Shown: positions 1,897 to 55,957, counted from the stretch's first letter. The stretch: 57,585 nucleotides of DNA from a virus (IMGVR_UViG_3300013099_000003:1-57585), one strand, 5' to 3'. Notes: a model not told the origin generated them from the letters alone. Program-made: numbers and translations.

Positions 1897-4800
1897 ATGG
1901 GATACTTTAGCGAAGACTTTAACGGATTCAATACGGAACCACAAGACTCAATCAGTATGGCCTCGGCTCGTAGTGAGGCTCATGTAGCAGAACGTGGGAC
2001 AACCATGGATATTCTCCATGACTTGTGGGCAGGAACTGGAGAAGCCTTTAAGTTAATAGGTGAGGGTACAGGCTTTGACAAGATGAAGTCTGCCGGAGAA
2101 TACATAGGCTCTACAGAATTCGCTAAGCCGGATACCTCGCAGTACTATGGTACCCAAGATAGACTAGGCAGAGTAGTTGATGGTATCTTTCAGGCAGCCC
2201 CACTGACCTTAGGTCTTGCTGGGACTACTGCCGTAGGTGCACTTGCTGGCCCGGTAGGAGCTGGTATGGCTCTTACTGCTGGCCTCAGTGCAGTTGGCAA
2301 AGGAACCTTCGATATATCTCTGGAGGAAATCCAGAAGGAGAGACCTGAGCTATCCTCTAAGGAGCAGTTTGATTATGCTCTTATTAATGCTGTGAGTGAG
2401 GTTGGATCCGAGGGACTAGGCTTCCTCCTTCCCTTTGGTATAGGTAAGTTAGCCGGTAAGGCTGGTTCCAAGGCAGTACTCAAGGCCTTAGTGGACTCTG
2501 GGAAGATGACAAGTAAGCAAGCTATAGGCTCCGTAGTTAAGGAGGTTGGTGCTAAGAATGTAATGACGGGCCTCTTCGGTGGTGCCGTAGCTGATGGTGC
2601 ATCCGAGGTAGGCAATGAGTTAGTTCAGGCTGCCAATAGAGAAGCTTATGGGATGGAGGGAGAGAAGGCTGATCTTATTGATCTCTTCTTGATCGGTAGT
2701 GCTCCGGGCGGTATCATTGCTGGTGGTACTATGGCAATGGATCAGGGAGTTAAGAGTAAGGTACAGAAGAGCCTAGAGGCTGGTCTTCAGAGTGAGTCCT
2801 TTGGTACTCGGCAGGCAACTGTTGATACTATTACTAGTGCATTATCCCAGATACATCCTGATGTTGGATCAGCATTCAAACAGGATCTCGGACAGAAGGC
2901 CTTAGTTGGTCCAGTGTCCTTGCAGGAGCCTGTAAGAACTCAGGAATCCGTAGTGGAGACTGAGATCCTTAATAAGCCAGAGGAAGTTCTAGCTGAGGTT
3001 GGGATACCAACCAAGGCTGATCCCTTAGGTACTGCTGAAGGAATGGATAGAGCAGACCTAGAGGATACTACTCTGGATTACTCTCAGACTCAGGAAGGCT
3101 TTCTTCCGGATGAACTAACAGCTCTAGAGTTGGAGAATCAGAAGTCTCTAGAGACACAGGAAACTGTAGACTCCTTCATGAAGAATGCTGAGAGATCCGT
3201 GATACCCATACAGAAGAGGGTAGTAACAACGGATGCCAAGGGCAACCAAGTAGAGACGATGGTGGATGGTACGATAGCTGAGACTAGTGTCCCCTTATAT
3301 GATGCCCTTATCCTTGATAACGCTAGAAGCCAAGCCATTAAGGAAGGCATGGAGGCAGTCCTAGTAGATGCTAATAAGTTATCCATGATGGCTGATTTGG
3401 ATGGAAGAGAGAAGTTACAGAAGAGTATAGCTAAGAGGCAGAAACAAATCAACAGTGAGGTACAAGAGCATGTTAAAGAGACTGAAGTTGTGGTTCCTAC
3501 GGAACAAGGAACAGTTGAAGGGATTGCTGAAGTTGTATCTGAAGAGGAAGTAAAGGTAGAGCCAAAGACTCCAGAGGTAATCGCTAAGGAAGTCTTAGAG
3601 GATACCGTTGTGCCTGAGGAAGTCCTTGCTGAACAGCCCGTGGAGCCTGTAGAGGCACCACCACAGCTCGTAGAGGAGGAAGTAATACCTGAGGTCATAG
3701 AGGAACCTGTAGGGCGTGTAGAGGAGGCTTACATATCTCCTGAGACTGATGTACCCATGGACGAGGAGCAGAGCACCTTAGCCATGGAATGGATGGATAA
3801 GGATATACCAGCAGATGATGCGATACTATTAGCTAAGAGGGCTACTCCGGTATCGGATGGCCCTGTCGAAGTGGAGGAATACAGGGATGGTAAGAAGTAC
3901 ACCGGAAGTAGATTCACAGATGGTTCAACTATTGAAGTTGGCAGAAGCACTAAAGGAAAGCAGTTCAAGGTATCTAAGGACGGTAAGGTCTACCGGGCGG
4001 GAAGCCGTAAAGCTGCGAGAGAAGGCATTGAAGGTAAGCGTGAGCTAGAGCTTTGGGAAGATAAGGTTCGAGAGAAGGCTGCTGAGAAGACCAGAGAGAA
4101 GCTGAGTGATAAGCAGAAGACTGAGATAGATGAATTCATAGTGGCTAACAGTGAGAGTGCTGAGGGCCCTAAACAGTATACTGAAGCATACCAGAAGGTT
4201 ACTAAAGGTATGAAGATGGACGACAAGATGGGCATGTTTGCTATGGCCCTAGGTGATGTAGCTCAGGGGCCTAAGGAATTGACTGCCGGGAACATAAGGG
4301 AGAAGATGCAGTCCTTAGCTAAGGCTGAAGAGAACACTACTGATACTGCTAAGATAGCTGATGAGGGTGGCAACGTAGCCATGGTCAGTACTGATACACT
4401 CTTCGAGTCACAGGAGAAGGCTGCCCAGAGTGAGCAGATGACTGAGACACAAGATGAGGACGTAGCATCCGAGTCATCTATGGAGGGTACTAAGGAAGAA
4501 GATGAGAGTACCTTAGCTACAACTGAGGATCCTACACAGTACACTCAGGAAGATAAGGGGAAGTATACCCTGAAGAAGATCTGGTATACCATTAGTGGCA
4601 AGAAGGTTGCTAAGAATAAGAAGGGGTCTGATGCAGTGGAGAGACTTGAGACTCCTGATGGTCGTTACGAAGTAGTCTTAGCTCCCCGGGAGAAGGGAGA
4701 GCCAGCTAAGGTACTCTTACTGAGGAACGGTGAGAATGCTGGGCCAGCCTTTAATAATCCTGATGAGGCTATGGAGTTCGCTAAGATGTCTGATGAGTAT

Positions 4801-9724: not shown

Positions 9725-9730
9725 AGGATA

Positions 9731-10057: not shown

Positions 10058-10058
10058 T

Positions 10059-11399: not shown

Positions 11400-11411
11400 G
11401 TCTCTAGAGAC
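11400..11411. repeat. GTCTCTAGAGAC palindrome copy (intergenic, immediately after the stop at 11397-11399)
   Basis: Exact 12-mer read directly. Confidence 0.95.
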
Positions 11412-14330: not shown

Positions 14331-14342
14331 GTCTCTAGAGAC
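14331..14342. repeat. GTCTCTAGAGAC palindrome copy (intergenic, 4 nt after the terminator stem)
   Basis: Exact 12-mer read directly. Confidence 0.95.
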
Positions 14343-15162: not shown

Positions 15163-16771
15163 TTCCTGTTCGTCCCTTAGCTTCTGTGTAGCTAACCCTT
15201 TCGAGGGGCTGACCTCCTCTGGAGCCATCGGGGTAACAGGTGAATCCTCTAAGTCTTGGGGCAAACTCTGCCAAGACTTCGGCAAATGGCTGAACACTGT
15301 CCTCACAATTCCCATCGGTTCCCCATGCTGGAAGGTTAATAGTTGAACTGATAGCATGATCAACGAAGTCCTGCATGTCAGCTTGGAACTCTATACGTCT
15401 CTTCGGCTCCTTAGCTAAATCTACTGCCGTCTCTATGCTCTCCGGGTCTAGGTTGTGCTTCTGTATGAGACCCTCTGCTGTACTATCTATGACGTACTCG
15501 TACTTCCAATCAGTCCCATCCACCAGATACCTTCTCTTATAGGCAACCGAATAGAGTGGCTCGATTCCCGTAGTTGTTCCAGCAAGGATACCAATAGTTC
15601 CTGTTGGGGCAATAGCTCGGTAGCCCTTAGGACGGTTAAGATAGAGTCTATCGCAATGTTCATTTGCTGATCTTTCGGATTCCTCTTCGTAGGCATACAT
15701 CCACTCCTTCAGCTCATCGTTCATTCCATACTTGTAGCCCCGCTTCAGTAACCATTCATGGACACCCATGAGGCCTACACCTATCCTCCGATTCTCCTCC
15801 CGTACTTGCTCCACTTTCTTATAAGGGAGATCTGCACGGACTGAACCACATACGAGGAACTTAGCTCCCAAGGATACTACCTCACGGAATTCCTCTATAG
15901 TCTCCACGTTAGCCATATTGACTGCACCTAGATTACAGCAGTCACTGTCATCCTCACTGGTAATCTCACAACAGGCATTCCTCAATGTCTCTAGAGACTT
16001 CCTTCCGAAGTTAAAGGAGAACCCGGGCTCACCAGTTCTCATAGCATTCATTACGTTATGCAGATAGATATCAGGTAGCACCCCATCATCCACTCTCTCT
16101 AGGAAGCTGTCGTCGTAGTTCAGAGATATGTTTGTCATATCTAAGGGAGCACGAAAGTTAAAGTCGGCTCTCTTCAGATCACCATAGGTCAGCCCCTTCC
16201 TTATCTCCATGGCATCCCAATCCTTAGCATTGATCCAATCCCAAGCATCATCATGAGACCACAACAGGGAGCCGTATATGGCACTCCTACGGCTTCCACC
16301 CTGCATTACGTTCTGCCCTATACCATTCACTAGTTCGGCCAGTGAGAGGGGCCCTGAGGCTACTCCTCCGGTTCTCCTGATTGGTCTCCCCTTCCCTCTT
16401 AGTATGCTGTAGTCTACGCCTATGCCACCACCCGTCATCAAGCAGCTCGTACTCCTTTGTGCTAATGCTGCCCACTCCTCTCTAGTATCCTCTTCAGCCT
16501 TCAGGCAGAAACAGTTATTGAAGAAGTGGGCATTCCTCCCAGCATAATAGATGTACCGTCCACCGGGCATCCACTTCATCTGAGTCATGAGGGATACTAG
16601 CTCTGACTGATCAGACTGAGAGAGTAGTCTCCTTCTTCTACCATTCATCTCACCTACTACATCCTCAGCTATAGTCCTACATCTCTCTGGCCACGTATCT
16701 GTCTGAGTCAGGGCATACTTATTGTAAAAAACATTACGGGCAATGACGTTTCTAAAGTTATGTTCAATCAT
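15104..16771 (-). CDS. ribonucleotide reductase, probably class II (adenosylcobalamin-dependent) type
   Basis: NACCEI...CCNLGAVNM (active-site N-x-C-x-E and downstream Cys), GGGIGVDYS, APTGTIGILAGTTTGIEP, and a C-terminal Cys pair. The class is inferred: no NrdB gene is present and there is no glycyl-radical C-terminus. Confidence 0.8.
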   Translation of the reverse strand: MIEHNFRNVIARNVFYNKYALTQTDTWPERCRTIAEDVVGEMNGRRRRLLSQSDQSELVSLMTQMKWMPGGRYIYYAGRNAHFFNNCFCLKAEEDTREEWAALAQRSTSCLMTGGGIGVDYSILRGKGRPIRRTGGVASGPLSLAELVNGIGQNVMQGGSRRSAIYGSLLWSHDDAWDWINAKDWDAMEIRKGLTYGDLKRADFNFRAPLDMTNISLNYDDSFLERVDDGVLPDIYLHNVMNAMRTGEPGFSFNFGRKSLETLRNACCEITSEDDSDCCNLGAVNMANVETIEEFREVVSLGAKFLVCGSVRADLPYKKVEQVREENRRIGVGLMGVHEWLLKRGYKYGMNDELKEWMYAYEEESERSANEHCDRLYLNRPKGYRAIAPTGTIGILAGTTTGIEPLYSVAYKRRYLVDGTDWKYEYVIDSTAEGLIQKHNLDPESIETAVDLAKEPKRRIEFQADMQDFVDHAISSTINLPAWGTDGNCEDSVQPFAEVLAEFAPRLRGFTCYPDGSRGGQPLERVSYTEAKGRTGNVYTESHDVCEITGGGSCG

Positions 16772-19094: not shown

Positions 19095-19549
19095 AGTACA
19101 CTCCTTACATGGTTCACCTGATTCATACAGTCATCCAAGGCATTATGAGAGTTCTTCTTCTCCATCTTCTTGAATTCATCTAGAGTCCTACAATCCCTCT
19201 CCATCCAGTAAGGGAAGGGGTAGCACCCAGCATCCCGAAGAACAGCAGCATCCATGGAGCCTCTACTCCAGACCTTCTTGATATCATATACTCTTTGGAG
19301 TTCCTTCATCACCTCATTAAGAATCTGTATGGAACCAATGGCTCCAAAGAAGACCTTCCAGTTTCTGCCCTGCTTCTTATGCCAATCCAGTGTGTCTCTA
19401 GAGACAGTTCGGCCATCCACTATCTGCTGGTGCCACCCAAGGTTCATCTCCATAGTCTCTATGTTCTTCTTCCGATTGAATATGACGACACCCACTTGAA
19501 GTATCAAGGCAGTAGCTTTAGTATCCAGAGTCTCTATATCGATCATCAT
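19064..19549 (-). CDS. DEDD-type 3'-5' exonuclease
   Basis: MMIDIETLD (Exo I) ... HNALDDC (Exo III). Start set at the ATG with SD aaggaag, 10 nt after the dUTPase stop. Confidence 0.7.
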   Translation of the reverse strand: MMIDIETLDTKATALILQVGVVIFNRKKNIETMEMNLGWHQQIVDGRTVSRDTLDWHKKQGRNWKVFFGAIGSIQILNEVMKELQRVYDIKKVWSRGSMDAAVLRDAGCYPFPYWMERDCRTLDEFKKMEKKNSHNALDDCMNQVNHVRSVLWNNAQAVTA

Positions 19550-21267: not shown

Positions 21268-22030
21268 CGAAGGTACCTCCCTCACTCAGTAGTTGAGCTA
21301 ATGGTTTGTCTCTAGAGACAGCCTTTGGGACAGTACAACAGGGGCCTACTGATCCATAAGGTAATACACGACTACACTTAGGACATCTATTAGGCTTCAG
21401 GTAGTAATGCCTCACTGCCTCCATGGTATCCTCAGCCATTCCCTCGACCTCATGTTCCTTGAAGGGCTGACGGAACTCACAGGATGCTATGTTCTTATTG
21501 TAGAACTGGTAGTAACCCTCGTCCGTGAGGGCCTCCAGAACATTCTCCTCTACCATCAGGAATATCTCAGATAGGTGCAAGTCTAACTTATCCTTACACA
21601 TCCTCTCGATCTGGAAGTAGAACATGTGGGCACCTTGGGCCTTAACGTCAGCCGTTAAGTCCCTGCTGGAACCACAGTACTCCTTCCATCCTGAGTACTT
21701 CCATGCCTTCTCATCCCACTTAGGACTCTCCAGATCACAGCACTTGTACCCAGCAGGAGGCCCATCCCAATGATAGAACTGTTTACTGCCTATATACATC
21801 TTACCTGTTACCTTATGGGTAATCCGGTAGATGAATCCAAAGTATGGCCCATCAATCAAGCCGTACCAGTGGTGGCCATTCTTAGCTACAGCTAAGGCAT
21901 ACTCTGCTTCCTCCTTAGTATCATACCGACCTACGTTCTTCTTCCTTTGGCCATCCCAATAGTAGGTACGATATCTTCCTGAGGGAGTCAGGTACACACT
22001 CTCAGGGATCTCCTTATTCTTCTTTCTCAT
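21254..22030 (-). CDS. GIY-YIG-type homing-endonuclease-like protein with AP2-like N-terminal domain
   Basis: FIYRITHKVTGKMYIGS (GIY-9aa-YIG spacing). N-terminal SGRYRTYYWDGQRKKNVGRYDTKEEAEYA resembles AP2-type DNA-binding modules. Confidence 0.5.
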   Translation of the reverse strand: MRKKNKEIPESVYLTPSGRYRTYYWDGQRKKNVGRYDTKEEAEYALAVAKNGHHWYGLIDGPYFGFIYRITHKVTGKMYIGSKQFYHWDGPPAGYKCCDLESPKWDEKAWKYSGWKEYCGSSRDLTADVKAQGAHMFYFQIERMCKDKLDLHLSEIFLMVEENVLEALTDEGYYQFYNKNIASCEFRQPFKEHEVEGMAEDTMEAVRHYYLKPNRCPKCSRVLPYGSVGPCCTVPKAVSRDKPLAQLLSEGGTFDDIR

Positions 22031-22758: not shown

Positions 22759-23638
22759 GATCCTCCTGTGTAGGTGCTTCCCATCCATCATCCTCTGAAC
22801 GGAGTAGGTAAAGTAGTCTCGCATGAACCCTTACGGTAGCAATCATACGGCTCTGGAAATCCTCTTGGGTTTCCCCTTCCTCTGGCTTATGTCTCTGTAG
22901 GTACTCCTTCAGTACCACACAGTACATCATGAAGGGGCTATGAACATCCTTCAGTAACTTCTTAGCAGTAACTGCCCCAACCCCTTTGATTCCGGGGATA
23001 CCATCCGTAGCATCTCCTGTTAACATCTGGCTATATAGACTCCTATTTCCCTGCTCCTCAGTCACCTCCGAGAAGATCTTCTTGACAAAGTTGAAGTGGT
23101 GCCCGGGAACTTGGAGGAGATCCTTATCAATCGAACAGATCACGGTATCCTCTCCTTGGCCCATAGCCATCATGTCGTCAGCTTCGAGGAGACCGGGCTT
23201 ACTCTTGGCACCATACTTACTCACTAGGTAATCCTTCATGGCATTAAGGTGGTGAGGTCTCCGAAGATCCTTCCGGTTACTCTTGTATTCAGGGAACTCT
23301 TGCTCCCGGAAAGAACCCTCTATACTTAGGAAGAACTGTAGGGATATCTTACATCCATAGTGTTCCTCACAATCCATCTTGATACCATGCACTATCTTAG
23401 TGATTAAGTACTTAGCATTCTTCTCAGGCTCTGGGTCAAACTCTAGATCTAAGGTACAGGGAAAACCCTCCGTCTCTAGAGACTTCTTCAGGATGTCTGC
23501 ATCCTTCTTATACTCTTCAAAGAGGGTGACTGCTTGGCCCTCTCTCATATACCTAAGAGCATACTGCCTTCCATCACAGACAGCAGCAGCTCTATAGGCT
23601 ACGATGTCTCCATCTATCAGGAGAACCTTAGAAGTCAT
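22745..23638 (-). CDS. 5'-3' exonuclease / flap endonuclease (T7 gp6 / PolI 5' nuclease family)
   Basis: LLIDGDIVAYRAA, EADDMMA, SIDKDLLQV, TGDATDGIPGIKGVGAVTAKKLL. Confidence 0.85.
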   Translation of the reverse strand: MTSKVLLIDGDIVAYRAAAVCDGRQYALRYMREGQAVTLFEEYKKDADILKKSLETEGFPCTLDLEFDPEPEKNAKYLITKIVHGIKMDCEEHYGCKISLQFFLSIEGSFREQEFPEYKSNRKDLRRPHHLNAMKDYLVSKYGAKSKPGLLEADDMMAMGQGEDTVICSIDKDLLQVPGHHFNFVKKIFSEVTEEQGNRSLYSQMLTGDATDGIPGIKGVGAVTAKKLLKDVHSPFMMYCVVLKEYLQRHKPEEGETQEDFQSRMIATVRVHARLLYLLRSEDDGWEAPTQEDHANR

Positions 23639-24125
23639 TGGTGTCTCCAGAGACATCATCAAATCCACCGAACTCTACTCCATCAACCACCTGAACTCCG
23701 TCGAGGTATGCTGAGAGAATCCATGTGCCCTTGATGGGCCATGCCTTAGCACTCAGATTCAGGTTGCAAATAGAACCATTACCTATTTGCTCAGTGTGGG
23801 GAGTCCGACCATCTGCCCCGACTACCTGAGGTGGCTTGTTCTCTACACCTTTAGCAGTCCGTACCTTCTTTGTGACCTTGAAGAGATTCTTAATTACTGT
23901 GCCATCCTTCAGAGTCTTATCATTCACAGCGAACCCAAGCTTCTTCAGCTCACCAGCTAAGCCATCCTCAAGATGACAATCAACTGACCACTTATGTTCA
24001 AACTTAGTATCTGGCTCATGAACCTTAGCCCAGAAGACCTTGATGTTAGTCAGCTTGAACTTCACGTAACCATCAGCATACTTCTGATCAATGTTGATAC
24101 CATCTTTAGTTAAATTCTCAGCCAT
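23628..24125 (-). CDS. ssDNA-binding protein, T7 gp2.5-like
   Basis: Size, position between polymerase and nuclease genes, and an acidic C-terminal tail ending in Phe (GGFDDVSGDTNDF), as in gp2.5. Confidence 0.6.
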   Translation of the reverse strand: MAENLTKDGINIDQKYADGYVKFKLTNIKVFWAKVHEPDTKFEHKWSVDCHLEDGLAGELKKLGFAVNDKTLKDGTVIKNLFKVTKKVRTAKGVENKPPQVVGADGRTPHTEQIGNGSICNLNLSAKAWPIKGTWILSAYLDGVQVVDGVEFGGFDDVSGDTNDF

Positions 24126-34283: not shown

Positions 34284-36200
34284 CTACTTCAGAATGTTCT
34301 TCTTCAGGAGACCCAGCAGGACTCCCTCCAATTCGGTCAGCTCATTGATGACCTTTGACTCACTATAATAATGAGTGATGTTGTGGGTCTGTATGCCTAC
34401 CCCAATGATATGCATCAGGCCACTATCTTCTATACTCTTCACGGTATCTACGAGGAACTGTTCATCATCTCCTCTGCCATATGCTGGGTTCCCATCACTC
34501 AGCACGATCAGTATCTTATTCTTCTCGGGTCTCCTTGCGAGAACCTGAGCAGCGGCAGTGACTGCCTCACCATCTGCATTGCATCCCATATAAATCTTAC
34601 CGTTACCATATCTATCAATCAGCTTGTCTCTAGAGACATACCGTTCCTCAAAGTGTTTCATGATGTAATGAGCACGGCCACGGCCCCCTGTGCTGAACTG
34701 CATCATGCTATGTGGTATCTTTAAGGTCTGCATGACCTCACTCATGGCTATCTGGCAGCTGGCTGAAGTATAGTACCTCTCATTGCTCATGCTACCAGAG
34801 ACATCACCCAGCATAAAGAGTGCAGTATCCTGTTCAATCTTAGCGGTTAACCTCTGCTTAAAGATACGGGGCTGGTTGTGTCCCGCATAGATACGGCTGA
34901 CTGACTTGGAGCAGAGCTTACCTCTCTTCATACCATACTGATACCCTATTTGGGATACTGATATGAGATACTTCTTCACCTTCTTACTGAGAGTGAAGGT
35001 TCCTAAGGTTTTCTTGATACCCTCACCATAGGCACAGTTATTAACCTGCCACTTAGTTACATCGAACTCCTCCAGATCATTACTCCTTGGTTGGTATGGA
35101 GTCCGGGGCTCTCTTGCAGATAGCTCTGTGGTACTCTCAATGGGCTTCTGAGTGAGGCCCATATTCTCCAGCATAGTACCACCTTGGCCAGCACCTACAC
35201 TATTATCTGGTGTGCCAGCAGCCGACTGTTGGTCTCCATCGTCTCCCTCAGGGTTATCACTGCGTTGTTCCTCTCCTGTGTCATCGTCTTCACCTTCCAC
35301 TTCAGGGTCTCGTTGACTCTCAGGAGATTGTCCCTCTCCGTCTTCACTATCTTCAGTATCCTCAGGAGATCCTTCTCCTTCTCCTTGTTGTTCTTCATCC
35401 TCAGATTCGGGGGAGCTGTCTTCACCTGATTGGCCACTGCCTCCATCATCTCCTTCTCCAGCCTCATTATCGTCTTGGCTTGAGTCATCAGTGCTTCCCG
35501 GATCTCCTTCTCCTCCACCTCCAGATCCTCCACCCTTCCCGTCAGATCCATCAGATCCATCTCCATCGTCGCCTTCTCCATCTCCTTCCTCCGGTGGTGG
35601 TGGAGGCTCATGCTCCACCCTATGTAGTAAAGTTCTTAGGTCATCCTCTGTCTCTAGAGACAACCACTCTTCATCAATGAACTGGAGCCGACGTACCTCC
35701 TCCTCCAGTTCATCAGGACATTCACAGTGCTCGTAGCCCTGCCATTCATTCCTCATCTCATTGCCTATGAACATCATAGCAGCAAGAGTAGGATTAACCT
35801 TAGTCATCTCATCCACGATATGAGGCACTCCACCAGCAGCCTGTACTGTACGGCTATATGAGTCCGAGAGTATCCTATCTCTTCCCTCATATTCTCCGTG
35901 CATATGGTACTCAGTCCTCTGAGCTTGGATGAAGTCCTTCGCCACTGCCTGAAGGCTATCAGGTTCTAGCTCTACCTTATGGAAGAAGGACATATCCTTA
36001 GTCTGCTTACTGATCTCCTGATGGAGTGAACCCATGTACTCATCATGATTGTAGATACTCGGGACTCCGATGTGGATATTCCCTCGCTTATCACTGATAG
36101 GTGTGGAAGCTCCTTCTGACTGCTTAACAGTGATGCCTTCTGATCTGGCCACAGCCTTAGCGAACTTGGTACTCTCTTCGATCCCGAATATATCCGTCAT
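34284..36200 (-). CDS. cobT: CobT-like protein with central poly-acidic tract and C-terminal VWA domain
   Basis: Long D/E/G/S tract (about 35200-35600) and MIDAS-like GDVSGSM in the C-terminal domain. Confidence 0.65.
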   Translation of the reverse strand: MTDIFGIEESTKFAKAVARSEGITVKQSEGASTPISDKRGNIHIGVPSIYNHDEYMGSLHQEISKQTKDMSFFHKVELEPDSLQAVAKDFIQAQRTEYHMHGEYEGRDRILSDSYSRTVQAAGGVPHIVDEMTKVNPTLAAMMFIGNEMRNEWQGYEHCECPDELEEEVRRLQFIDEEWLSLETEDDLRTLLHRVEHEPPPPPEEGDGEGDDGDGSDGSDGKGGGSGGGGEGDPGSTDDSSQDDNEAGEGDDGGSGQSGEDSSPESEDEEQQGEGEGSPEDTEDSEDGEGQSPESQRDPEVEGEDDDTGEEQRSDNPEGDDGDQQSAAGTPDNSVGAGQGGTMLENMGLTQKPIESTTELSAREPRTPYQPRSNDLEEFDVTKWQVNNCAYGEGIKKTLGTFTLSKKVKKYLISVSQIGYQYGMKRGKLCSKSVSRIYAGHNQPRIFKQRLTAKIEQDTALFMLGDVSGSMSNERYYTSASCQIAMSEVMQTLKIPHSMMQFSTGGRGRAHYIMKHFEERYVSRDKLIDRYGNGKIYMGCNADGEAVTAAAQVLARRPEKNKILIVLSDGNPAYGRGDDEQFLVDTVKSIEDSGLMHIIGVGIQTHNITHYYSESKVINELTELEGVLLGLLKKNILK

Positions 36201-36562: not shown

Positions 36563-36794
36563 CTTCGGCCTCCCTCTCTCGGAACATCTTATCCAGTAGC
36601 ATGATTGCTCGGACTGCCATACCTTCCTCATCTGTAAGCTCCAGTCCATCCTCACTGGCTGTCTTTAAACACTTAGCTTGGAGTGTCTCTAGAGACTTAA
36701 TGGCATCCTCTGGTTTATCCTCCTTATCCTCAAGAAGCATCTCACATATCAGTGCCAGTGTTCTCTTGTTCTCTACATCGACTTCCCATTTCAT
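36543..36794 (-). CDS. hypothetical acidic protein, 83 aa
   Basis: Trimmed to MKWEVDVENK; ATGA overlap and SD ggaggag. Confidence 0.6.
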   Translation of the reverse strand: MKWEVDVENKRTLALICEMLLEDKEDKPEDAIKSLETLQAKCLKTASEDGLELTDEEGMAVRAIMLLDKMFREREAEGGQTIH

Positions 36795-37320: not shown

Positions 37321-37865
37321 CCCTTCACCTCCTTTTGTGCTTCTACTACACAGCCCCTACACTTTTCATCCAGTAACAGTAGAACATCCTCAGGAACCGG
37401 GCAGCTATCTTGGATCTCGAAGATCTGTATCCTATGGAAGACTGAGGTATCAATCATAAGGGTGTCTACAATATCCGGATCAATATTCAGTCGATGTCTA
37501 TTGCCATGTCCATTAGCATCACTCATGAATTGCTCAAGCATATCATTATCATCCGGACTGAAGGGAGCATGGAGACTGTATGTAATACCAGTGAATGCCT
37601 GTATCAGTTGCTCACCCACCCATTCAGGCCAGATGGTAGTATTAAGGTACACCTTAGCTCCTTGATCCTTGAGGTACGTGGCTATCTCTAAGGTATATCC
37701 GGGGTACAGGAGAGGCTCACCACCTGTTAGTGTTACCCTCTCATACTTTAGGAGATCCTTTCGGTTCCGGCATGTCTCTAGAGACTCCTTAGTTCCCTCA
37801 TGCTTATTACAGCAGTACCAGCAGTCTCTCGGACAGCTCTCCGTTATGAGTACCCTAGCATCCAT
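37314..37865 (-). CDS. small radical SAM protein (NrdG/QueE-like activase size class)
   Basis: CPRDCWYC (CxxxCxxC cluster motif) and VTLTGGEPLL. Confidence 0.75.
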   Translation of the reverse strand: MDARVLITESCPRDCWYCCNKHEGTKESLETCRNRKDLLKYERVTLTGGEPLLYPGYTLEIATYLKDQGAKVYLNTTIWPEWVGEQLIQAFTGITYSLHAPFSPDDNDMLEQFMSDANGHGNRHRLNIDPDIVDTLMIDTSVFHRIQIFEIQDSCPVPEDVLLLLDEKCRGCVVEAQKEVKGC

Positions 37866-38034: not shown

Positions 38035-38393
38035 ATGTGCTCTCCCGGCTTAGTAAAGGTTACATTCTTCTCACTCCATTCCTTAGATTCCTTCAGTCCC
38101 CATCCAGTAGCATCACGGACTGCCTTGATCACCTTGATCTTATTCAGTGCATAATCAGCTACTCCATATGCTGCCGCCTTAGCTAGTGTCTCTGGAGACA
38201 GAGGCAATATCCTCAGGTCATCATACCTCTCTATAGCATCAGCCATAGTCCGGAAGTGATCTCCACAGGTCAGGAGGAGAGCCTTATTGGTATCCTCCAC
38301 ATTTATCAGATCATCCTCACATTTCTGGAGGATTACAGCTATACTCTCATGGAATCCCCTTGCATTTATCCTCCGGCCACCATAGATATTCAT
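38031..38393 (-). CDS. protein with a ribosomal L7/L12 C-terminal-domain-like segment
   Basis: NKIKVIKAVRDATGWGLKESKEW compared with E. coli bL12 [23 protein letters not shown]. Start trimmed to an ATGA overlap. Confidence 0.6.
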   Translation of the reverse strand: MNIYGGRRINARGFHESIAVILQKCEDDLINVEDTNKALLLTCGDHFRTMADAIERYDDLRILPLSPETLAKAAAYGVADYALNKIKVIKAVRDATGWGLKESKEWSEKNVTFTKPGEHI

Positions 38394-38758
38394 ATGGAGA
38401 TACCACATCGAGCTACGGCAAGGAGCTGTTGATCTTCAGTATAATACTCAGCTTGTACCTTGATGCCAAACTCAGCCAGTATCTTGAACTTAGGATTCTT
38501 ACAGACTGTTTCCGTGACTACCTTATCCGCTTCCTCAGGATTATCACTGAAGATCGTGGCTACTATCCCATTGTCAACCTTATAGACAAAGTATGCAGTA
38601 TTATCCTTGCATCCAGCAGTGATGAAGGTAGTGATCTCATCTATACGGATGCCGGGTTCCATCTTTGAGAGACTCTCATTCAACTCCTGACATGGTGTAG
38701 AGAGGGCTGGTGTCGCTAGAGACAGCAAGAGTGCTGTCGTAAGTATACTTTTATACAT
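38390..38758 (-). CDS. secreted protein, 122 aa
   Basis: Signal peptide MYKSILTTALLLSLATPALSTP. Confidence 0.65.
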   Translation of the reverse strand: MYKSILTTALLLSLATPALSTPCQELNESLSKMEPGIRIDEITTFITAGCKDNTAYFVYKVDNGIVATIFSDNPEEADKVVTETVCKNPKFKILAEFGIKVQAEYYTEDQQLLAVARCGISI

Positions 38759-38876: not shown

Positions 38877-39233
38877 TCATTCTCCTATGAAGTACATAAA
38901 AGGAGTGCCTACTTTGCTGAAGTCCTTACTTCTGTGAACTTCACCACATCTCATCCATCTCTTTATCCTACCTTCGGATACCTTAGAACCAAGACCATCT
39001 CGAAGCTCCTCAAGGGTCGGACGAAACTTCGCAATGTATGCGAGGATATCATCCTTCGCAATAGTGAGTCTCGAACAGTCTCTAGAGACATCACTTGTGG
39101 TATCATCGGAGATCTCCTCCGGATTCACCATCTTATCAAATCCATCCATGATATGTGGGAAGTCTCTCAGTACAACTTCCGGAATTGAATCTACTGCATT
39201 AATTATGTTACGTAACTCACTGATACTGGGCAT
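38877..39233 (-). CDS. hypothetical protein, 118 aa (possible DNA-binding protein)
   Basis: Trimmed to MPSISELRN with SD ggaggtaaag; first gene after the 39.27-39.48 kb palindrome cluster. Confidence 0.6.
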   Translation of the reverse strand: MPSISELRNIINAVDSIPEVVLRDFPHIMDGFDKMVNPEEISDDTTSDVSRDCSRLTIAKDDILAYIAKFRPTLEELRDGLGSKVSEGRIKRWMRCGEVHRSKDFSKVGTPFMYFIGE

Positions 39234-39273
39234 TTCTTTACCTCCATCTGGCATAATTGCCGACTTCTTCGGT

Positions 39274-39285
39274 GTCTCTAGAGAC
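39274..39285. repeat. GTCTCTAGAGAC palindrome copy (intergenic)
   Basis: Exact 12-mer. Confidence 0.95.
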
Positions 39286-39489: not shown

Positions 39490-40221
39490 CTATGCGAAAT
39501 GCTTAGTGGCCATTTTCAGGAGATCTGCTTGAACATCGGCTTTCTCTGTATCATCGGCAATATCCAGCAGGGAGCCGAGCTGAGCAATGAGATCTCTCAT
39601 TTCTACGGTAATATCAAGGTTATTCACACAGATGGCTGTGGTGAGCTTATGGGCTTCGAGAATATCCGCCTGCTCAGTCATCTTATCCGCAGCAGTCTGC
39701 AATCCCTCACAATGCCTTCGGACGGCCTCAATAGGAACTTCCTCAGTCGTACATCTCTTCAGCAAATCACACCTTGCACCTACCTTGAACTGCTCAGGAT
39801 AGAGAGAAGAGGAGAGACCGAAGCTCAGGATCTTTGCGATAGTTCCGGCATAATCCCACATCCGTCTTGTCTCTGCCCAGCTACTCCATTGAACCTTTCC
39901 GTCTTTCACGATATCGAAGGAAGCACCCTGACGATTCTTCCCTGTGAGTGGTAAGGTGTCCAGTTCAGCATGGATATGGTTAGCGAGTACACCTTTCAGG
40001 TAGGTACCGTTCTTCTTTATGGATTCCTTAGAGGTATCCATCTCAATCTGGGTGAGATCCACACGTTCCATCAGTATGGAGACAGTTTGGTCCCAGACTA
40101 TCGAATCATTCTTCTTTACGGTTCTTCCAGCAGTCGTACTTTTATCACTTGCTTTCATCGCAGCTACTACGTCTTCACCTTTAATGATGCTGTAGGTTAT
40201 GTCGTCACTTTTCTTACTCAT
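39490..40221 (-). CDS. hypothetical early protein, 243 aa
   Basis: ORF track; isolated gene bracketed by palindrome copies. Confidence 0.7.
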   Translation of the reverse strand: MSKKSDDITYSIIKGEDVVAAMKASDKSTTAGRTVKKNDSIVWDQTVSILMERVDLTQIEMDTSKESIKKNGTYLKGVLANHIHAELDTLPLTGKNRQGASFDIVKDGKVQWSSWAETRRMWDYAGTIAKILSFGLSSSLYPEQFKVGARCDLLKRCTTEEVPIEAVRRHCEGLQTAADKMTEQADILEAHKLTTAICVNNLDITVEMRDLIAQLGSLLDIADDTEKADVQADLLKMATKHFA

Positions 40222-40370
40222 AATAATACCCCTTTGTTCTGGTTTAGGTAAAATCCCCGGTTATCCGGTGTCTCTAGAGACTTCAGATAGCCTGAAGCCT
40301 TAATTTCAGCATTCTTCCGCCTAGATTGGGCAGCCTGTACATCCGATCTCTTGATACGGATAATAGTCAC
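40218..40370 (-). CDS. basic mini-protein, 50 aa, GTG start (below the ORF-track cutoff)
   Basis: SD gaggagg lies 6 nt before GTG 40370. My own translation: (M)TIIRIKRSDVQAAQSRRKNAEIKASGYLKSLETPDNRGFYLNQNKGVLL. The stop forms an ATGA overlap with the 243-aa gene. It contains the palindrome copy at 40270-40281 in the SLET frame. Confidence 0.5.
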   Translation of the reverse strand: MTIIRIKRSDVQAAQSRRKNAEIKASGYLKSLETPDNRGFYLNQNKGVLL

Positions 40371-40710
40371 AGTACACCTCCTCTAAGTTTATGTAGAACA
40401 GCCACACTAATCCATTGTTTTCCATAGTTACTATCATATTACCACCTCTCAGTTCTTGTATATACCCAGTGTACTACCATAAGTATAAGATTTACGATTC
40501 TCTCTTGCATAATTCCTCCAAGGTTATAGGTTAAGGAATGCTCAGGTTAGTGCTACGGTTCCTGAGCAGACCTTAATCGGTATCCTCATTGCTATTATGT
40601 GCTCCATGCAGCTATAGTTCACCCTCAGGCAGCCTGTCGTATCCCAGCTAGGATATCCTCCGCATTCTTAAGTCGGAATTCAGGTAATCAGGTGCTATAA
40701 TCAATCGGTT

Positions 40711-40722
40711 GTCTCTAGAGAC
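40711..40722. repeat. GTCTCTAGAGAC palindrome copy (ORF-poor region)
   Basis: Exact 12-mer. Confidence 0.95.
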
Positions 40723-41276
40723 TCCGAATAATCAGTATGGACTCTTCATTGGGAGGCCCATTTGCTCCCATCACTACACTTGTTTATCGTGCCAAGTTCA
40801 CCTTAAGATATTTAGTACCCCTCTCAGTCGGGTGTAGACGTTCGGCTAGGTTTCCTAAGGGTTGCCCCTTTATCCCAACCTTTCCCGGGAGATCGTACTC
40901 CGGAAGGTCGTCAATGCTCTCTATTCAAGCCCATTTGGGTGATTCCCGTTCCCTATAGTTCCGGATTCCTAGCGGTATCTTGTAGACTACCCTTTCAGCG
41001 TATCCTATGATTCTTTCGACTCTCCCGTAAGCTCTCCGAGGTTTCCGTTGGCTACTCTCTTGAGAGAATCTTCTATCCCTCTGGCGAGTGGCCATCCGCC
41101 TCAGTGAACCCCTTTCAGGTCTCGCTGTCCGACTTGCTCTGTCAGGTTGGCTTGCGTATTTATTGTTTTTAGGTGCTCCTTTTAGATTGCCATGTTTTCC
41201 TTGTGGTGTCTAGTGTTTATCTTGTCGAGGTCTCTACTTCCCTCAATAGTTTACTCTTTGGCACCCTTTTGTCTGT

Positions 41277-41288
41277 GTCTCTAGAGAC
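41277..41288. repeat. GTCTCTAGAGAC palindrome copy (ORF-poor region)
   Basis: Exact 12-mer. Confidence 0.95.
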
Positions 41289-41563
41289 TTAGCCCAGATC
41301 GAAGTAGGTACCCCGGAGTCATCTCAGGATTGGAATCCGGCTGAGCCATGGAGGCCCCCGGGGAGTGGAGGTAGCCCCTCCGTATCTTGTAGCCATTTCT
41401 GAGAATAAGTACCTGCTCCATCCCTCTGCTACACCTTCCAGAAATACCTATGCACAAACCTTGCACACTTCGCACAAGCAGGAGAATGAACCCCATCCCT
41501 GACATTAAGCACCAATAAAGAGCCTAGGAATACTATAGGAATCTCCATGACTTAGACTAGGGG

Positions 41564-41592
41564 TTGACAAAAGGGCTTCGAGATGGTATAAC
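41564..41592 (+). promoter_or_regulatory. sigma-70-type promoter in front of the plus-strand (packaging/structural) block
   Basis: ggggTTGACA (41564-41569), 17-nt spacer ending TGg, then TATAAC (41587-41592). Confidence 0.65.
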
Positions 41593-41671
41593 TACATAAG
41601 AGCAAGAGACTTAAAGGTGGGAATCTAAAAGATCCGGGGGAACCTAGGGTCTTTCTTTAGGTCTAACCTAT

Positions 41672-41748
41672 CTACTTATACTTTACTACTTATACTTAGG
41701 TAATACTATAAAGGAATATATAAAGGAATAACCTAAGGCTAACCTAGG
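41672..41748 (+). repeat. cluster of short direct repeats in the AT-rich leader
   Basis: tacttatactt at 41673-41683 and 41687-41697; tataaaggaata in perfect tandem at 41707-41718 and 41719-41730; taacctaagg at 41729 and taacctagg at 41740. Confidence 0.85.
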
Positions 41749-41759
41749 AGGACTAAAGA

Positions 41760-42557
41760 TTGTCTGAAGTTATCGTAAGAAAACCTAAGCCACCCTTAAC
41801 AGATCAAGAGAAGTACCAAGTAATACTAAAGTACTCTGAAGGTGTTCCAGTTACTCAGATAGCCTCTGAAGTCTCTAGAGACATAGGGATTATAAATAAG
41901 CTAATCAGTAAGACCCACAATGGCATGACGGCAGTAAAGGAAACCAATGCACTTCTCCAAGCTACCCATAAGGGAGCCGTAACACAGTACTACGGGAAGA
42001 ACCCATCCAAGTTCATAACGACTGCCTTCCTAGCCGAGATAGATACCTTGGCTGAGATCTATGCTTACTACTTTGCCCAGACAGGGGACAATAGATTTGC
42101 CCTCATACAAAGTGGGATGGATATGGGAATCCCTAAGAACATGCGTAAGAATACCAAGGACTACGTATATAAGATCCGTGGTCAATTCCTCAGAGATATC
42201 CCACAGGTCAAGGATATCATAAAGCTAGTCCACGATAAGAGGATCAAGGAATATCATATAGAGAAGCCCCAGATCCAGATGGAACTGGTAGCCCAGATAG
42301 AGGAACTGAAGGAAGCAGTAAAGGATGATCCTAAACAACGGGTGAACCTCTTGAGAGCTGTAGAGATGCTAGGCCGTACAATCGGATCCTTCACGGACAG
42401 AGTACAAGTTGAGGAGGTTGATGCTAAGAGTGGCTTAGAGATTCTTATGGAGAGAGCTAAAGGAGAAGCTAAATTGACGTATGTCCCCGAGGAGGAGCAT
42501 GGCGAAGAAGACTCAGAAGCAGAAGCTCCTGGAGACTGCCCAGATATATTACAATGA
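41760..42557 (+). CDS. small-terminase-like protein with HTH (TTG start)
   Basis: SD aggagg lies 8 nt before TTG. HTH-like GVPVTQIASEVSRDIGIINKLI. Immediately upstream of the large terminase. Confidence 0.5.
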   Translation: MSEVIVRKPKPPLTDQEKYQVILKYSEGVPVTQIASEVSRDIGIINKLISKTHNGMTAVKETNALLQATHKGAVTQYYGKNPSKFITTAFLAEIDTLAEIYAYYFAQTGDNRFALIQSGMDMGIPKNMRKNTKDYVYKIRGQFLRDIPQVKDIIKLVHDKRIKEYHIEKPQIQMELVAQIEELKEAVKDDPKQRVNLLRAVEMLGRTIGSFTDRVQVEEVDAKSGLEILMERAKGEAKLTYVPEEEHGEEDSEAEAPGDCPDILQ

Positions 42558-49304: not shown

Positions 49305-49324
49305 AATTAAACAAAGGAAAGTAT

Positions 49325-50266: not shown

Positions 50267-52156
50267 ATGAAATCAACACCAATAAGATTTGGGTCTTACA
50301 AGACAGCCATTGTCGAGCTGAAGAAGGGCATTAATGAAAATGTCTCTTCTTTAGAACTTGAGGGTGGTGAATTGATAGACTGCAAGAACTATATGATAGC
50401 CGAGGGTGGCTATGGTGGCTACACTTCTCTTCCCGGGTATGAGAGATTTGATGGACTTATCACGCCCTCTCGCTTTGAATCAGTGGTATTAACTGTTGAT
50501 AATTGTGATGCTGCTATCTTAATTGGAAACCTCATTACTGGAGGAATCTCTCTGGCCACAGCTACACCTCTAGAAGATGGAGAATTAATAAGTGGTGCAT
50601 ATGTGGATGGAGATGCTCAGGTAATTGTAGAGTGCCTGATAGCTACAGGCTCCTTCGATACTGGAGAAGCCCTTAGTTGGGTAGGTGGAACAGGCACACT
50701 ATTCAATGCAACTGTAATGGAGGGTGGATCAGTAGATTATCACCTAGCCTTGGACTTTGCTAGAACTCAGGTAACTGAAGTTCCCGGCGAGGGACCAATA
50801 CTCGGCCTCCATATATATGAGAAGAGAGCTTACGTATTCCGGAAGAAGATATCACTAGATGAAGTAGGGATGTATGGAGAGGATATCACAGGGTGGATCG
50901 AGATTGATACATCTGCTGATCCTCTAGTCTACTCCATCTCCTCTAATAGATTCAAGTTCTCTAACTATAACTTCTATGCTACCGAGGGCACCTTTAATAT
51001 GTACTGGGTAGACAGTGTGAACCAAGCTAGAGAGTATAATATAGCTACTGATACAGTAAGTACCATAGATAACTTTGGAATGTCCGATATAGGTGATGAT
51101 GCCCCTACAGACATAGCTGCACATAACTTTCATCTCTTCCTCGGATATCGAGGAGGATCTCTACAGCATTCCCAACTGGGTGAACCCTTTGTATGGGATG
51201 GTGTCTTAGGAGCCTCAGAGATAGGCTGTGGTAATACGATAACTAATCTGGTGCCCGGAGTCCAGTCATCACTCTTAGTGTACCTTACAGAAGGGATTAG
51301 GATACTCCACGGTAATACTATAGATGACTTTGTACTGGAAGTATTCAGTGAGACCTCTGGTGCATTCGTAGATACAGCTAAAAGATTACTAGGTACAGCC
51401 TTCTTCGTGGATGATAGAGGATTAAGTACCATGGAAGCTGTACAGGACTTTGGAGACTATGCAGCTAACAGTATAAGCCAGAGATTCAAGCAGACACTCC
51501 TTAGCACAGGACATAGAATTACCCAATGTACTGTCTCTAGAGACTTGAATCAGTACCGGATCTTCTTTGATGATAGACAGGGTATCATAGTATCCTTTGA
51601 GGGGCGTGAGTTCCAAGGGGCTACCTTCATGGAGTATCCAGTAGTAGTCAATGTGGCTGGTCAGGGAGAGGACGAGGAGAAGAGGGACTACATAATCTTT
51701 GCCTCAGGGGAGGATTCAGGCTTTGTATATAGAATGGACTCTGGAACATCCTTTGATGGTACAGCAATTACCTGTAGACTATCTACAGCATTCTACCATT
51801 ATGGTTCCCCAAGGAACTATAAGGCATTCAAGAGAGCAACCATTGAGATAGCCGGACAGAGTGGCCAAGAGTTTGATGTAAAGGTAGACTTTGACTATAA
51901 TGAGCTGGGAGCCGCTAGAACAATCTGGTACTCTGCTGCTGTATATACCACGGAAGGTGGTGCAGTCTACAGTGAGGGCCTATGGGGTATAATGCAGTAT
52001 GGTACAGGTATCGTAGCAACCAATAGAGTTCCTGTGTATCTACAGGGAGTTGGGACCAACATGAGCTATAAGATAATCAGTAATGAGACATATAGACCAC
52101 AGCATGTAATCCAGAATATCATCACAGACTATGAGCTAGTAGGCCGAAGAATATAA
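50267..52156 (+). CDS. putative tail tubular protein B-like / nozzle protein (call by position only)
   Basis: 629 aa, adjacent to the previous gene with no gap. Confidence 0.4.
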   Translation: MKSTPIRFGSYKTAIVELKKGINENVSSLELEGGELIDCKNYMIAEGGYGGYTSLPGYERFDGLITPSRFESVVLTVDNCDAAILIGNLITGGISLATATPLEDGELISGAYVDGDAQVIVECLIATGSFDTGEALSWVGGTGTLFNATVMEGGSVDYHLALDFARTQVTEVPGEGPILGLHIYEKRAYVFRKKISLDEVGMYGEDITGWIEIDTSADPLVYSISSNRFKFSNYNFYATEGTFNMYWVDSVNQAREYNIATDTVSTIDNFGMSDIGDDAPTDIAAHNFHLFLGYRGGSLQHSQLGEPFVWDGVLGASEIGCGNTITNLVPGVQSSLLVYLTEGIRILHGNTIDDFVLEVFSETSGAFVDTAKRLLGTAFFVDDRGLSTMEAVQDFGDYAANSISQRFKQTLLSTGHRITQCTVSRDLNQYRIFFDDRQGIIVSFEGREFQGATFMEYPVVVNVAGQGEDEEKRDYIIFASGEDSGFVYRMDSGTSFDGTAITCRLSTAFYHYGSPRNYKAFKRATIEIAGQSGQEFDVKVDFDYNELGAARTIWYSAAVYTTEGGAVYSEGLWGIMQYGTGIVATNRVPVYLQGVGTNMSYKIISNETYRPQHVIQNIITDYELVGRRI

Positions 52157-55536: not shown

Positions 55537-55957
55537 GCCATGTACTATACTAGATTATGCTGAACTCATGGGTGTTCTCATAACCTTCTTCGATGAGGAT
55601 GAGATAGCCCTAAGAATTCGTAATGATCTAGTAGGGATAGTGCCAAAGATGAAGTGGTTCGTCCAAGATGATTACTGTATGTGCTATGAGCCCTTAGGTT
55701 TCTCTAAATACCAAGCACATATCTACTGTGTCTCTAGAGACAACCGGGGAAAGTTGCTGAGGGACTTCGCAGTAAGTACAGGTAGATGGATGTTAGATAA
55801 TACGGACTGTATATCCATACTGAACTTCGTTAAGAAGGATAGGAGGGATATACAGTTCTTCATGAGGGTAATTGGAAGTAAGAAAGTAGGAATAATCCCG
55901 GGGACTGACGATATCCTCTACGTCTCTACAGGGGATATGGGAATCAAGGAGAAATAA
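55526..55957 (+). CDS. hypothetical protein, about 143 aa (start uncertain)
   Basis: The tracked ORF 55439..55957 overlaps the previous gene by about 100 nt. ATG 55526 or 55568 is more plausible. Confidence 0.5.
   Translation: MQHKPCTILDYAELMGVLITFFDEDEIALRIRNDLVGIVPKMKWFVQDDYCMCYEPLGFSKYQAHIYCVSRDNRGKLLRDFAVSTGRWMLDNTDCISILNFVKKDRRDIQFFMRVIGSKKVGIIPGTDDILYVSTGDMGIKEK

Follow-up and report, generated by a model that had tools for sequence, protein, structure and literature searches.

Dispersed invariant palindromes have, to our knowledge, been reported in a few phage groups, and only for the stoperators is a function known. In cluster O mycobacteriophages a 17-bp dyad repeat, TGTTCGGNNNCCGAACA, is present in 34 invariant copies in Corndog; the authors describing it infer a dimeric binding protein, leave the function open, and report the occasional loss of a copy by a single base change as well as recombination between copies (PMC4351075). 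The stoperators of cluster A phages (L5, Bxb1) are 13-bp sites, of which 20-30 are dispersed over each genome, mostly off promoters (PMC6550527, PMC9283540). When bound they block elongation, and their motif differs by sub-lineage, tracking the divergence of the repressor (PMC6550527). They are asymmetric, oriented with transcription, and bound by the monomeric immunity repressor of temperate phages (PMC6550527, PMC9283540). The element considered here is the 12-bp perfect palindrome GTCTCTAGAGAC, found in 27 exact copies in a 57,585-nt stretch of viral DNA (IMGVR_UViG_3300013099_000003:1-57585, hereafter the window, i.e., the whole of the DNA analysed). We lean towards regarding it as the putative recognition site of a clade-specific, two-fold-symmetric (homodimeric) DNA-binding protein acting genome-wide.

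Systems in which one binder serves many sites of 12-17 bp over a whole replicon include the C1 operators of P1, the inverted repeats of phiC31 and the KorA/KorB system of RK2, the KorA and KorB sites being perfect palindromes of 12-13 bp. In all of them the sites are located at promoters or centromeres or close by, and the binders are known (helix-turn-helix, HTH, or ParB-type proteins). Palindromes of 12-16 bp in coding DNA also organise chromosomes, where they are read by dimeric proteins (parS by ParB, NBS by Noc, SBS by SlmA, and matS by MatP), and it is their regional density that matters, not the exact position.

All 27 start coordinates proposed in the original prediction, which was made from the sequence alone, were borne out by an exact recount, and so was a 14-bp form, TGTCTCTAGAGACA, at seven copies (those at 19394, 21308, 34626, 35650, 48938, 48962, and 55730). 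In dinucleotide-preserving shuffles (n=100) the mean number of copies is 0.02 and the maximum 1, so the predicted excess over chance holds (27 copies versus 0.02 expected). Between 14331 and 41871 lie 21 of the 27 copies, and at 39.0-41.9 kb their spacing shrinks as had been claimed, measuring 24-821 bp. The palindrome family is sharply peaked on the exact sequence, since near-copies are few (seven at one mismatch and three at two mismatches); every occurrence of TCTCTAGAGA in the window belongs to a copy of the 12-mer. In the flanks only W at -1 and +13 is conserved, and the 12-14-mer is therefore the whole element, without a -35/-10 partner. That the sites are promoters, read by the phage's ECF-like sigma factor or by some other polymerase, was ruled out, nothing being conserved outside the 12-14-mer and the site being symmetric; a sigma-70 scan gave fewer matches than in shuffles. 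A literature search with the palindrome sequence returned cloning primers only.

Fully within called open reading frames (ORFs) lie 18 of the copies, while the other nine fall in the non-coding 8.4% of the sequence, which is thus ca. 4-fold enriched in them. The genome being 92% coding, most sites are written into ORFs, and this occurs in both stop-free frames, ten copies being read as VSRD and eight as SLET, so a peptide motif cannot account for the intragenic copies. When all ORFs were shuffled among synonymous codons, a mean of 8.5 copies was left, essentially the non-coding ones; thus the check that had been proposed, a mismatch count combined with codon-preserving shuffles, revealed few near-copies and the disappearance of the coding ones. 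The proteome contains 10 VSRD versus 0.23 expected and 9 SLET versus 0.39 expected. These peptides are an imprint of a DNA signal on the proteins, selection acting on DNA and not on protein. The 18 intragenic copies show no preference for a relative position within the ORF, as calculated from ORF and site coordinates.

Relatives were gathered by TerL-based and motif-based searches among independent assemblies from JGI, ENA, NCBI, and Logan. At least 15 related phage contigs from other metagenomes (designated below by L numbers) carry the same element or a lineage variant of it at a similar density, about one copy per 2 kb, as the search for the motif in related contigs suggested in the original prediction was meant to establish, and an iterated palindrome of this family is present in all relatives covering enough sequence. 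Its general form in the clade is (GT)GTCTC-YR-GAGAC(AC). The window form GTCTCTAGAGAC is shared by L020 (ca. 77-78% nucleotide identity; 10 copies in 6.4 kb), the L005-phage (20 copies in 29 kb of its early contig), and L027 (12 copies in 21 kb, with one TG-centre copy in addition). The CG-centre form GTGTCTCCGGAGACAC occurs in L002 (seven exact copies and one with a TG centre in 21 kb) and in L013 (3 copies in 8.4 kb). Mixed CG/CA/TG/TA (YR) centres characterise L021-L025 (2-4 copies per short contig), L026 (11 copies in 21 kb), L041 (9 copies in 13.9 kb), and L073 (11 copies in 11.4 kb), the TerL identity to the window falling to ca. 37% in L041 and L073. L003 and L004 have the TCTCTAGAGA core with TC/GA extensions (10-11 copies in ca. 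15 kb), L028 has TTTCYCTCTAGAGRGAAA (13 copies in 21 kb), and L029 has TGTCTC-N4-GAGACA (13 copies in 21 kb, spacer variants counted). A PolA-based search for longer relatives gave only one distant contig. An adapter or other artefact was ruled out by the presence of the motif at orthologous positions in relatives from independent assemblies. It is worth adding that some structural genes of the relatives are interrupted (the portal match of L003 at 9669-12908 is split by ca. 1 kb, the capsid match of L002 at 15106-17069 by ca. 0.9 kb, and in L027 a LAGLIDADG ORF, 14957-15733, lies beside the capsid gene), probably by introns, inteins or homing elements.

The seven sites common to the window and L020 are identical in 84 of 84 nucleotides on a background of 77% (0.77^84 is ca. 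3e-10), so the shared sites are under strong purifying selection. Sites overlie aligned codons, and no indels are found when they are compared with orthologues lacking the site. To judge from these codon-for-codon alignments, the copies arose by point substitution and not by insertion, at the price of changes in the protein sequences; a mobile insertion of the REP or MITE type was ruled out by the lack of indels and the intragenic location of 18 of the 27 copies, and the earlier statement that the element is neither a transposon nor a CRISPR repeat was correct. Several positions are orthologous across lineages, each lineage having its own variant there: residue 38 of the small terminase TerS, the VSRD sites of the CobT-like protein and of PolA, the position just past the early gene for a 243-aa protein, and the site or pair after the capsid gene. 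At residue 38, TerS reads VSRD in the window, L005, and L026, and VSGD in L002, which matches the CCGG motif of the latter; the terS site is absent in L004, L027, L028, L029, L041, L056, and L089, all of which keep the motif elsewhere. Many intragenic sites are lineage-specific, and the orthologue usually has a site elsewhere in the gene; examples are the genes of the reductase, exonuclease, 5'-3' exonuclease, and primase, and that of CobT, in which the SLET site is shifted by six codons. The similarity between the window and L020 is interrupted precisely at the 40711 site, and the pair region is duplicated in L020; this suggests that copies recombine now and then, as has been described for cluster O.

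Although many sites are non-orthologous, their spacing is even. In the 14.3-39.1 kb part of the window, 13 intervals of 1.0-3.6 kb have a coefficient of variation (CV) of 0.44, and only ca. 0.1% of uniform placements are as even; the early contig of the L005-phage gives a CV of 0.42 (P 0.0013), and the pooled relatives a CV of 0.55, a value matched in none of 20,000 simulations. The density is 0.73 sites per kb in the early half of the window versus 0.23 per kb in the structural half (ca. 3-fold), and in five relatives 41 sites lie upstream of TerL versus 16 at or downstream of it. Since even spacing persists while many sites are non-orthologous, it is local density in the early half, and not particular positions, that selection maintains.

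The contig ends in an exact 123-bp direct overlap (1-123 and 57463-57585), and one gene spans the junction. The assembly is thus closed into a circle or permuted, and a physical terminal repeat cannot be deduced from the overlap. Structural genes occupy the plus strand from 41.7 kb, across the end of the contig, as far as 14.3 kb and code for TerS, TerL, portal, capsid, and tail tube proteins, a fibre, and a 2101-aa virion protein. On the minus strand, from 41.5 kb down to 14.3 kb, lie the early and replication genes, coding for a class II ribonucleotide reductase, dUTPase, Endo VII-type nuclease, GIY-YIG protein, RusA, 5'-3' exonuclease, ECF-like sigma factor, PolA, a T7 gp4-like primase/helicase, ATP-dependent ligase, and a CobS/CobT-like pair. 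The relatives have adaptor and portal proteins of SU10-type families, and on this ground the phage is taken, by sequence, for an uncultured SU10/phiEco32-like podovirus. Megablast against GenBank phages gave no match, and the best TerL matches among cultured phages are at most 32% identical, so there is no characterised relative. Neither integrase nor partition genes were found in the Pfam, PHROGs, and NCBIfam scans, which covered nearly all ORFs, and the phage looks lytic.

The early and late operons diverge from a region of ca. 1.4 kb, 40371..41759, without a convincing ORF. Two copies (40711 and 41277) lie inside it and two (40270 and 41871) flank it, and a gap of the same size is found at the same place in L002, L004, and L026-L029. 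The region shows no DNA similarity to its equivalents in the relatives and no notable repeats besides the motif; it may hold an origin, the genome termini or a non-coding RNA. A scan of Rfam at gathering thresholds revealed a tRNA-Met only, and no known RNA family for the palindrome or the 1.4-kb gap. Direct repeats of the sequence 'TTGTACC', iteron-like and about ten in number, occur in the equivalent region of L021 (250-1560). A near-consensus sigma-70 promoter, TTGACA-17-TATAAC, at 41564-41592(+) faces the terminase/structural operon and has no motif copy near it.

Most likely the job of the sites is genome-wide control or organisation of the early half, an assessment based on the early bias, the cluster at the divergent control region, and the even spacing. 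The invariance of the sequence, its two-fold symmetry, the lack of an orientation preference, the concerted drift between lineages, and purifying selection argue for a symmetric reader of duplex DNA co-evolving with its sites, much as repressors and their operators do, the half-site of the putative dimer being (T)GTCTCY. As regards orientation, the asymmetric CA/TG centres occur in both directions relative to transcription (ca. 9 versus 4 in the window and the listed sites of the relatives), which fits such a symmetric reader; an orientation bias of the CCAG centre of L021 vanished on adding contigs. From these properties we infer that the sites are bound by a protein, presumably one encoded by the phage, so the array of dimer-binding sites, densest at 39-42 kb, that had been put forward at the outset is favoured by the evidence, except that its binder was not found in the ORF scans. 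According to the scheme we propose, the phage would keep about one site per 1-3.5 kb across the leftward genes of its early/replication half (14.3-41.5 kb), with sites densely clustered around the early control region (39.0-41.9 kb) and sparser among the structural genes; intragenic sites would turn over, and key intergenic ones (downstream of the first early genes and of the capsid gene, and within the control region) would stay fixed. The divergent early promoters would be controlled by dimers occupying the control region, and dimers at dispersed intragenic sites might act as orientation-independent roadblocks or anchoring points, in the manner of stoperators but in a phage that looks lytic; this roadblock or anchoring step is the more conjectural part.

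The same palindrome was encountered in an unrelated 66%-GC element with an integrase fragment, L001. Three CGTCTCTAGAGACG copies (1297-1410) are found there, flanked by an Xre-type HTH gene (1512-1787, -) on one side and by the gene that follows (915-1355, -) on the other. This three-site array has what reads as a classical operator-like layout, and as such it supports an operator role of the palindrome.

Three gene products had been named in the original prediction as possible binders. The one encoded by 41760..42557(+), taken for TerS on account of its position and synteny beside TerL, remains a candidate owing to an N-terminal HTH-like segment; Pfam, PHROGs, and NCBIfam-type scans gave it no family assignment. 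The 125-aa protein of 38877..39254(-) is not conserved in relatives keeping the motif. The third, a 243-aa orphan (39490..40221, -) at the head of the early operon, has no recognisable DNA-binding fold and is a candidate only through association. It occurs in all motif-bearing relatives for which the control region is available, and has 68 homologues among 1.8 billion representative proteins. Modelled twice, it reached a pLDDT of 68 and then 94; the model had no match at E 0.001 or better in PDB or BFVD, and profile searches against PDB sequences and Pfam were empty, so that on the model it appears to be a new fold. A further candidate is a 50-aa basic protein (pI 10.4; 40218..40370, -), the product of the first ORF of the leftward early operon, which overlaps the start of the 243-aa gene and itself carries a motif copy. 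It is kept in L020, L002, L004, L026, and L028 at 36-80% identity and has no family match; from its sequence it is a plausible small DNA-binding regulator. When orthologue identity was tabulated against motif type, no protein was found whose divergence tracked the motif.

Several observations weigh against a dimeric protein as the reader of the palindrome. The scans mentioned above found no repressor, ParB/KorB, ParA, methyltransferase or recombinase among the ORFs. The 243-aa protein, the only conserved one of the control region large enough to model, is mildly acidic and without a match to a DNA-binding fold. A classical immunity-repressor role is unlikely because integrase and partition genes were not found, and roadblocks inside essential replication genes would need tight timing. 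Moreover, the spacing of the GTCTC arms varies by lineage (2 bp in the window, 4 bp in L029, and 2-6 bp in L003/L004), a variation that sits uneasily with a rigid dimer and better with a reader of hairpins. The tandem pairs 39425/39449 and 48938/48962 do form hairpins (z = -5.7 and -4.8, respectively), and several conserved intergenic sites, such as those after the capsid gene and the first early gene, are located where terminators or RNA-processing hairpins are usual.

Compared with the cluster O repeat, the window likewise has tens of invariant inverted repeats in one genome (more than 25), with very few one-mismatch copies (27 exact versus seven), located both between (9) and inside (18) genes, denser in the leftward non-structural region, and mostly off promoters; the occasional disappearance of a copy through one substitution and signs of recombination between copies are further shared traits. 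The two nevertheless differ in sequence, which is unrelated (TGTTCGG-N3-CCGAACA in cluster O, with a 3-bp spacer that is missing here), and in their carriers, actinobacterial siphoviruses as opposed to an SU10-like podovirus clade. In cluster O, moreover, positions are mostly kept among very close genomes, whereas here two thirds of the sites are intragenic, they turn over while remaining evenly spaced, and the motif drifts across lineages down to a TerL identity of ca. 37%. With the stoperators the window shares the number of copies of one short site (27, within the range of 20-30) and the divergence of the motif with lineage (TA, CG, and YR centres, a 4-bp spacer, altered arms). Unlike stoperators, the site is a perfect palindrome, its asymmetric centres occur in both orientations, most copies lie inside ORFs, and neither an immunity repressor nor an integrase or parABS was detected in the Pfam, PHROGs, and NCBIfam scans. 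On this comparison, the nearest descriptive match appears to be the cluster O repeat and the nearest characterised mechanism the cluster A stoperator array. The P1, phiC31, and RK2 systems differ from the present one, in which sites are mainly in coding sequence and ORF scans found no protein of the HTH or ParB type serving them. Several palindromic sites per replicon, tolerated in genes, are a trait shared with ParB/parS and KorB/OB, whose sites are of 13-16 bp, but no ParB-family protein (ParBc with HTH) or ParA was found in the scanned ORFs. The parS, NBS, SBS, and matS arrays belong to cellular chromosomes, their density is ca. 10-100-fold lower, and the corresponding protein families were not found in the phage scans. 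Mostly intragenic placement, the imprint on the proteome, turnover that maintains density, even spacing, and deep clade-wide drift are newly documented here.

Among the other explanations, one that we hold tentatively is a fast-evolving 'genome identity code'. The palindrome would be continually re-created about every 1-3 kb within coding sequence, amino-acid changes being accepted as the price, and an unrecognised reader (possibly the 50-aa protein or a partner of the 243-aa one) would silence, compact or protect the early half, the first to enter the cell, and perhaps exclude or discriminate co-infecting relatives bearing other variants.

Somewhat more doubtful is that the sites load or organise a machine of DNA transactions, be it TerS initiating packaging, a sliding or bridging protein similar to ParB/KorB or Noc/SlmA, or the initiation and priming of replication. 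Even spacing and the maintenance of density would suit a factor of limited reach, lineage drift is typical of packaging, partition, and origin specificities, and one conserved site lies in the terS gene, as do many pac sites (P22, SPP1); that site is, however, missing from the seven relatives named above, and packaging or compaction gives no cause for the 3-fold early bias. For a partition-like protein, the ORF scans show no ParB, ParA or KorB-like domain. As to priming, the phage encodes a T7 gp4-like primase/helicase, and the GTGTC of the extended form in several lineages is the same as a recognition sequence of T7-type primases, yet the trinucleotide need of a primase cannot explain an invariance over 12-16 bp.

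It is unlikely that the palindrome works in RNA or single-stranded DNA, as a hairpin with a stem of 4-7 bp and a 4-nt loop (CUAG, CCGG, CYRG, UAUG) recognised by an RNA-binding protein or nuclease, and with the pairs ending or stabilising transcripts. Every lineage variant, whatever its arm spacing, fits a drawing in which a 4-nt loop separates a pyrimidine arm from a purine arm, the palindrome enters the transcript from either strand, the tandem pairs fold, and conserved sites are found just past the capsid, portal, and first early genes, often beside the next ribosome-binding site. The original prediction had allowed the element only a 4-bp stem, which stands for single copies (4-5 bp) but not for the tandem pairs, whose hairpins are of ca. 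16 bp; L028 keeps a pair of the same 24-bp pitch after its capsid gene (16079-16118) despite a different motif. Single copies fold locally no better than shuffled sequence does (z -1.2 to +1.5), no genome shows co-varying stems, what is invariant being the sequence itself and not just the pairing, 18 copies lie in essential ORFs without a preferred position, and asymmetric centres show no preference for the sense strand. An intrinsic terminator was rejected, single copies being no stabler than shuffles and neither pair, for all its 16-bp stem, being followed by a U-tract.

The chances are slighter still that the phage accumulated a signal determined by its host, such as a Chi-like sequence that stops the host's end-processing nuclease, a site for a host transcription factor or nucleoid protein, or a HIP1/DUS-like element, the last of which had been suggested and is unlikely. 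A high density at the possible first-entering end with regular back-ups would suit protection from exonuclease, and lineage differences could mirror different hosts. Known Chi sites, nevertheless, are asymmetric and of 5-8 nt, the motif differs between phages whose TerL is ca. 75% identical and between contigs from similar habitats, and within IMG/VR several copies of the 14-mer occur together only in contigs of this clade, ca. 70 other stretches having one each.

Programmed nicking or cleavage by a phage nuclease at the inverted GTCTC half-sites around TA, another of the earlier suggestions, is very improbable. GIY-YIG, Endo VII-type, and RusA nucleases and a DNA ligase are encoded, and GTCTC is a known type IIS recognition sequence, but a symmetric site cut on both strands would lead to 27 double-strand breaks, the arm spacing varies by lineage in contrast to the fixed type IIS geometry, and the nicked genomes of T5, tf, and phiKMV-like phages use asymmetric, strand-specific sites, for whose one-strand consensus there is no counterpart in a palindrome. 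The last possibility, by-products in the form of a mobile micro-element, of linkers for recombination or of an error in sequencing or assembly, is barely conceivable and already largely refuted. The break at 40711 and the duplicated pair region of L020 speak for it; against it, there are no indels at sites on aligned codons, 12 bp hold no mobility functions, orthologous positions recur in independent assemblies, and purifying selection is strong.

The individual copies, returning to the palindrome as a putative dimer-binding site, can be followed along the window. In its left part the first, 3144..3155, lies in the ORF for the 2101-aa virion protein, 1897-8202(+), and is read K-SLE-T. The second, 11400..11411, is intergenic, directly following the TAA of 10059-11399, with an ATG 32 nt on at 11444; the third, 14331..14342, is at the convergent junction between genes and abuts a strong hairpin at ca. 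14291-14330 (z -3.6).

The leftward early genes come next. The copy at 15987..15998 (SLET) is in the ribonucleotide reductase ORF, 15104-16771(-), whose orthologue in the L005-phage has its sites at other positions, and the one at 19394..19405 (VSRD), in an Rv2179c-like exonuclease ORF, 19064-19585(-), is displaced in the same phage. Nearby, 19970-20239 codes for a protein with a Tad2-like (anti-Thoeris) domain and 20450-20896 for the Endo VII-type nuclease. The SegE-like GIY-YIG homing endonuclease ORF, 21254-22030(-), contains the copy 21308..21319 (VSRD) near its 3' end, and the 5'-3' exonuclease ORF, 22745-23668(-), the copy 23472..23483 (SLET). The ECF-like sigma factor (regions 2 and 4) is encoded at 24930-25412(-). 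In the DNA polymerase A ORF, 25394-27367(-), the site 25919..25930 (VSRD) has its orthologue kept in L050; in that of the primase/helicase, 28539-30221(-), the site 29502..29513 (VSRD) corresponds to VARD in L102, which has its site elsewhere. The copy 30845..30856 (SLET) belongs to a 66-aa ORF, 30742-30942(-), and 32546..32557 (VSRD) to the ATP-dependent DNA ligase ORF, 31724-32932(-), where L002 has its site elsewhere in the gene. A MoxR-AAA and VWA pair of the CobS/CobT type spans 33111-36200, and its CobT-like VWA ORF, 34284-36200(-), holds two copies, namely 34626..34637 (VSRD), kept as the own-lineage variant in L002, L004, L026, L102, and L028, and 35650..35661 (SLET), instead of which L004 and L102 have a site 6 codons downstream. 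Then follow 36685..36696 (SLET) in a 103-aa ORF, 36543-36854(-), 37774..37785 (SLET) in a radical-SAM ORF, 37314-37877(-), and 39078..39089 (VSRD) in the ORF for the 125-aa protein. The one-mismatch copies are variants of the centre (GTCTCCAGAGAC at 23643..23654 and 27606..27617, of a kind that is the norm in some relatives, and GTCTCTGGAGAC at 38188..38199) or of an arm (GTCGCTAGAGAC at 38712..38723, with others at 5682, 8179, and 32799).

At the control region, the copy 39274..39285, 20 nt upstream of the ATG at 39254, has a counterpart in L020. The first tandem pair (39425-39436 and 39449-39460, with a 24-bp pitch) lies 30-65 nt beyond the stop codon for the 243-aa protein; both copies are retained in L020, and most relatives have a site at the same position. 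L020 also keeps the copies 40270..40281 (SLET, in the 50-aa ORF, abutting a small hairpin at 40281-40297), 40711..40722, and 41277..41288, the last two being non-coding. An extended -10-like TGcTATAAT (40693-40701, +), which is a reading of the sequence and not a call of the promoter scan, is found 9 nt upstream of the 40711 copy. The site 41871..41882, coding for the VSRD at residue 38 in the HTH-like segment of TerS, is at the same position in L020, L005, and L026, and in L002 it is the CCGG variant.

Further into the structural genes, the second tandem pair (48938-48949 and 48962-48973, likewise with a 24-bp pitch, forming a 16-17-bp hairpin) is located between the ORF 48388-48894 and the tRNA-Met gene; L002, L005, L026, L028, and L089 retain one site or a pair following the gene for the capsid. 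The tRNA-Met (anticodon CAT, 49230-49304, +) lies directly downstream of this pair and is overlapped by the ORF 49229-49576, whose 5' end is probably spurious. The copy 51533..51544 (VSRD) is in a tail-tube-B-like ORF, 50267-52156(+), with none at this position in L051, and the last, 55730..55741 (VSRD), in the ORF 55439-55957(+).

The VSRD and SLET peptides call for caution in annotation, as in these proteomes they are by-products of a DNA signal. The natural specificity variants of this deep clade (TA, CG, and YR centres as well as different arm spacings) make the system experimentally tractable, as do the clear signs that selection concerns the density of sites and not their position and the measurable imprint on proteins; the variants could also supply orthogonal protein/operator pairs. 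The reader protein, once found, would probably reveal a new DNA-binding family and, with it, a mechanism of genome-wide control or organisation in lytic podoviruses.

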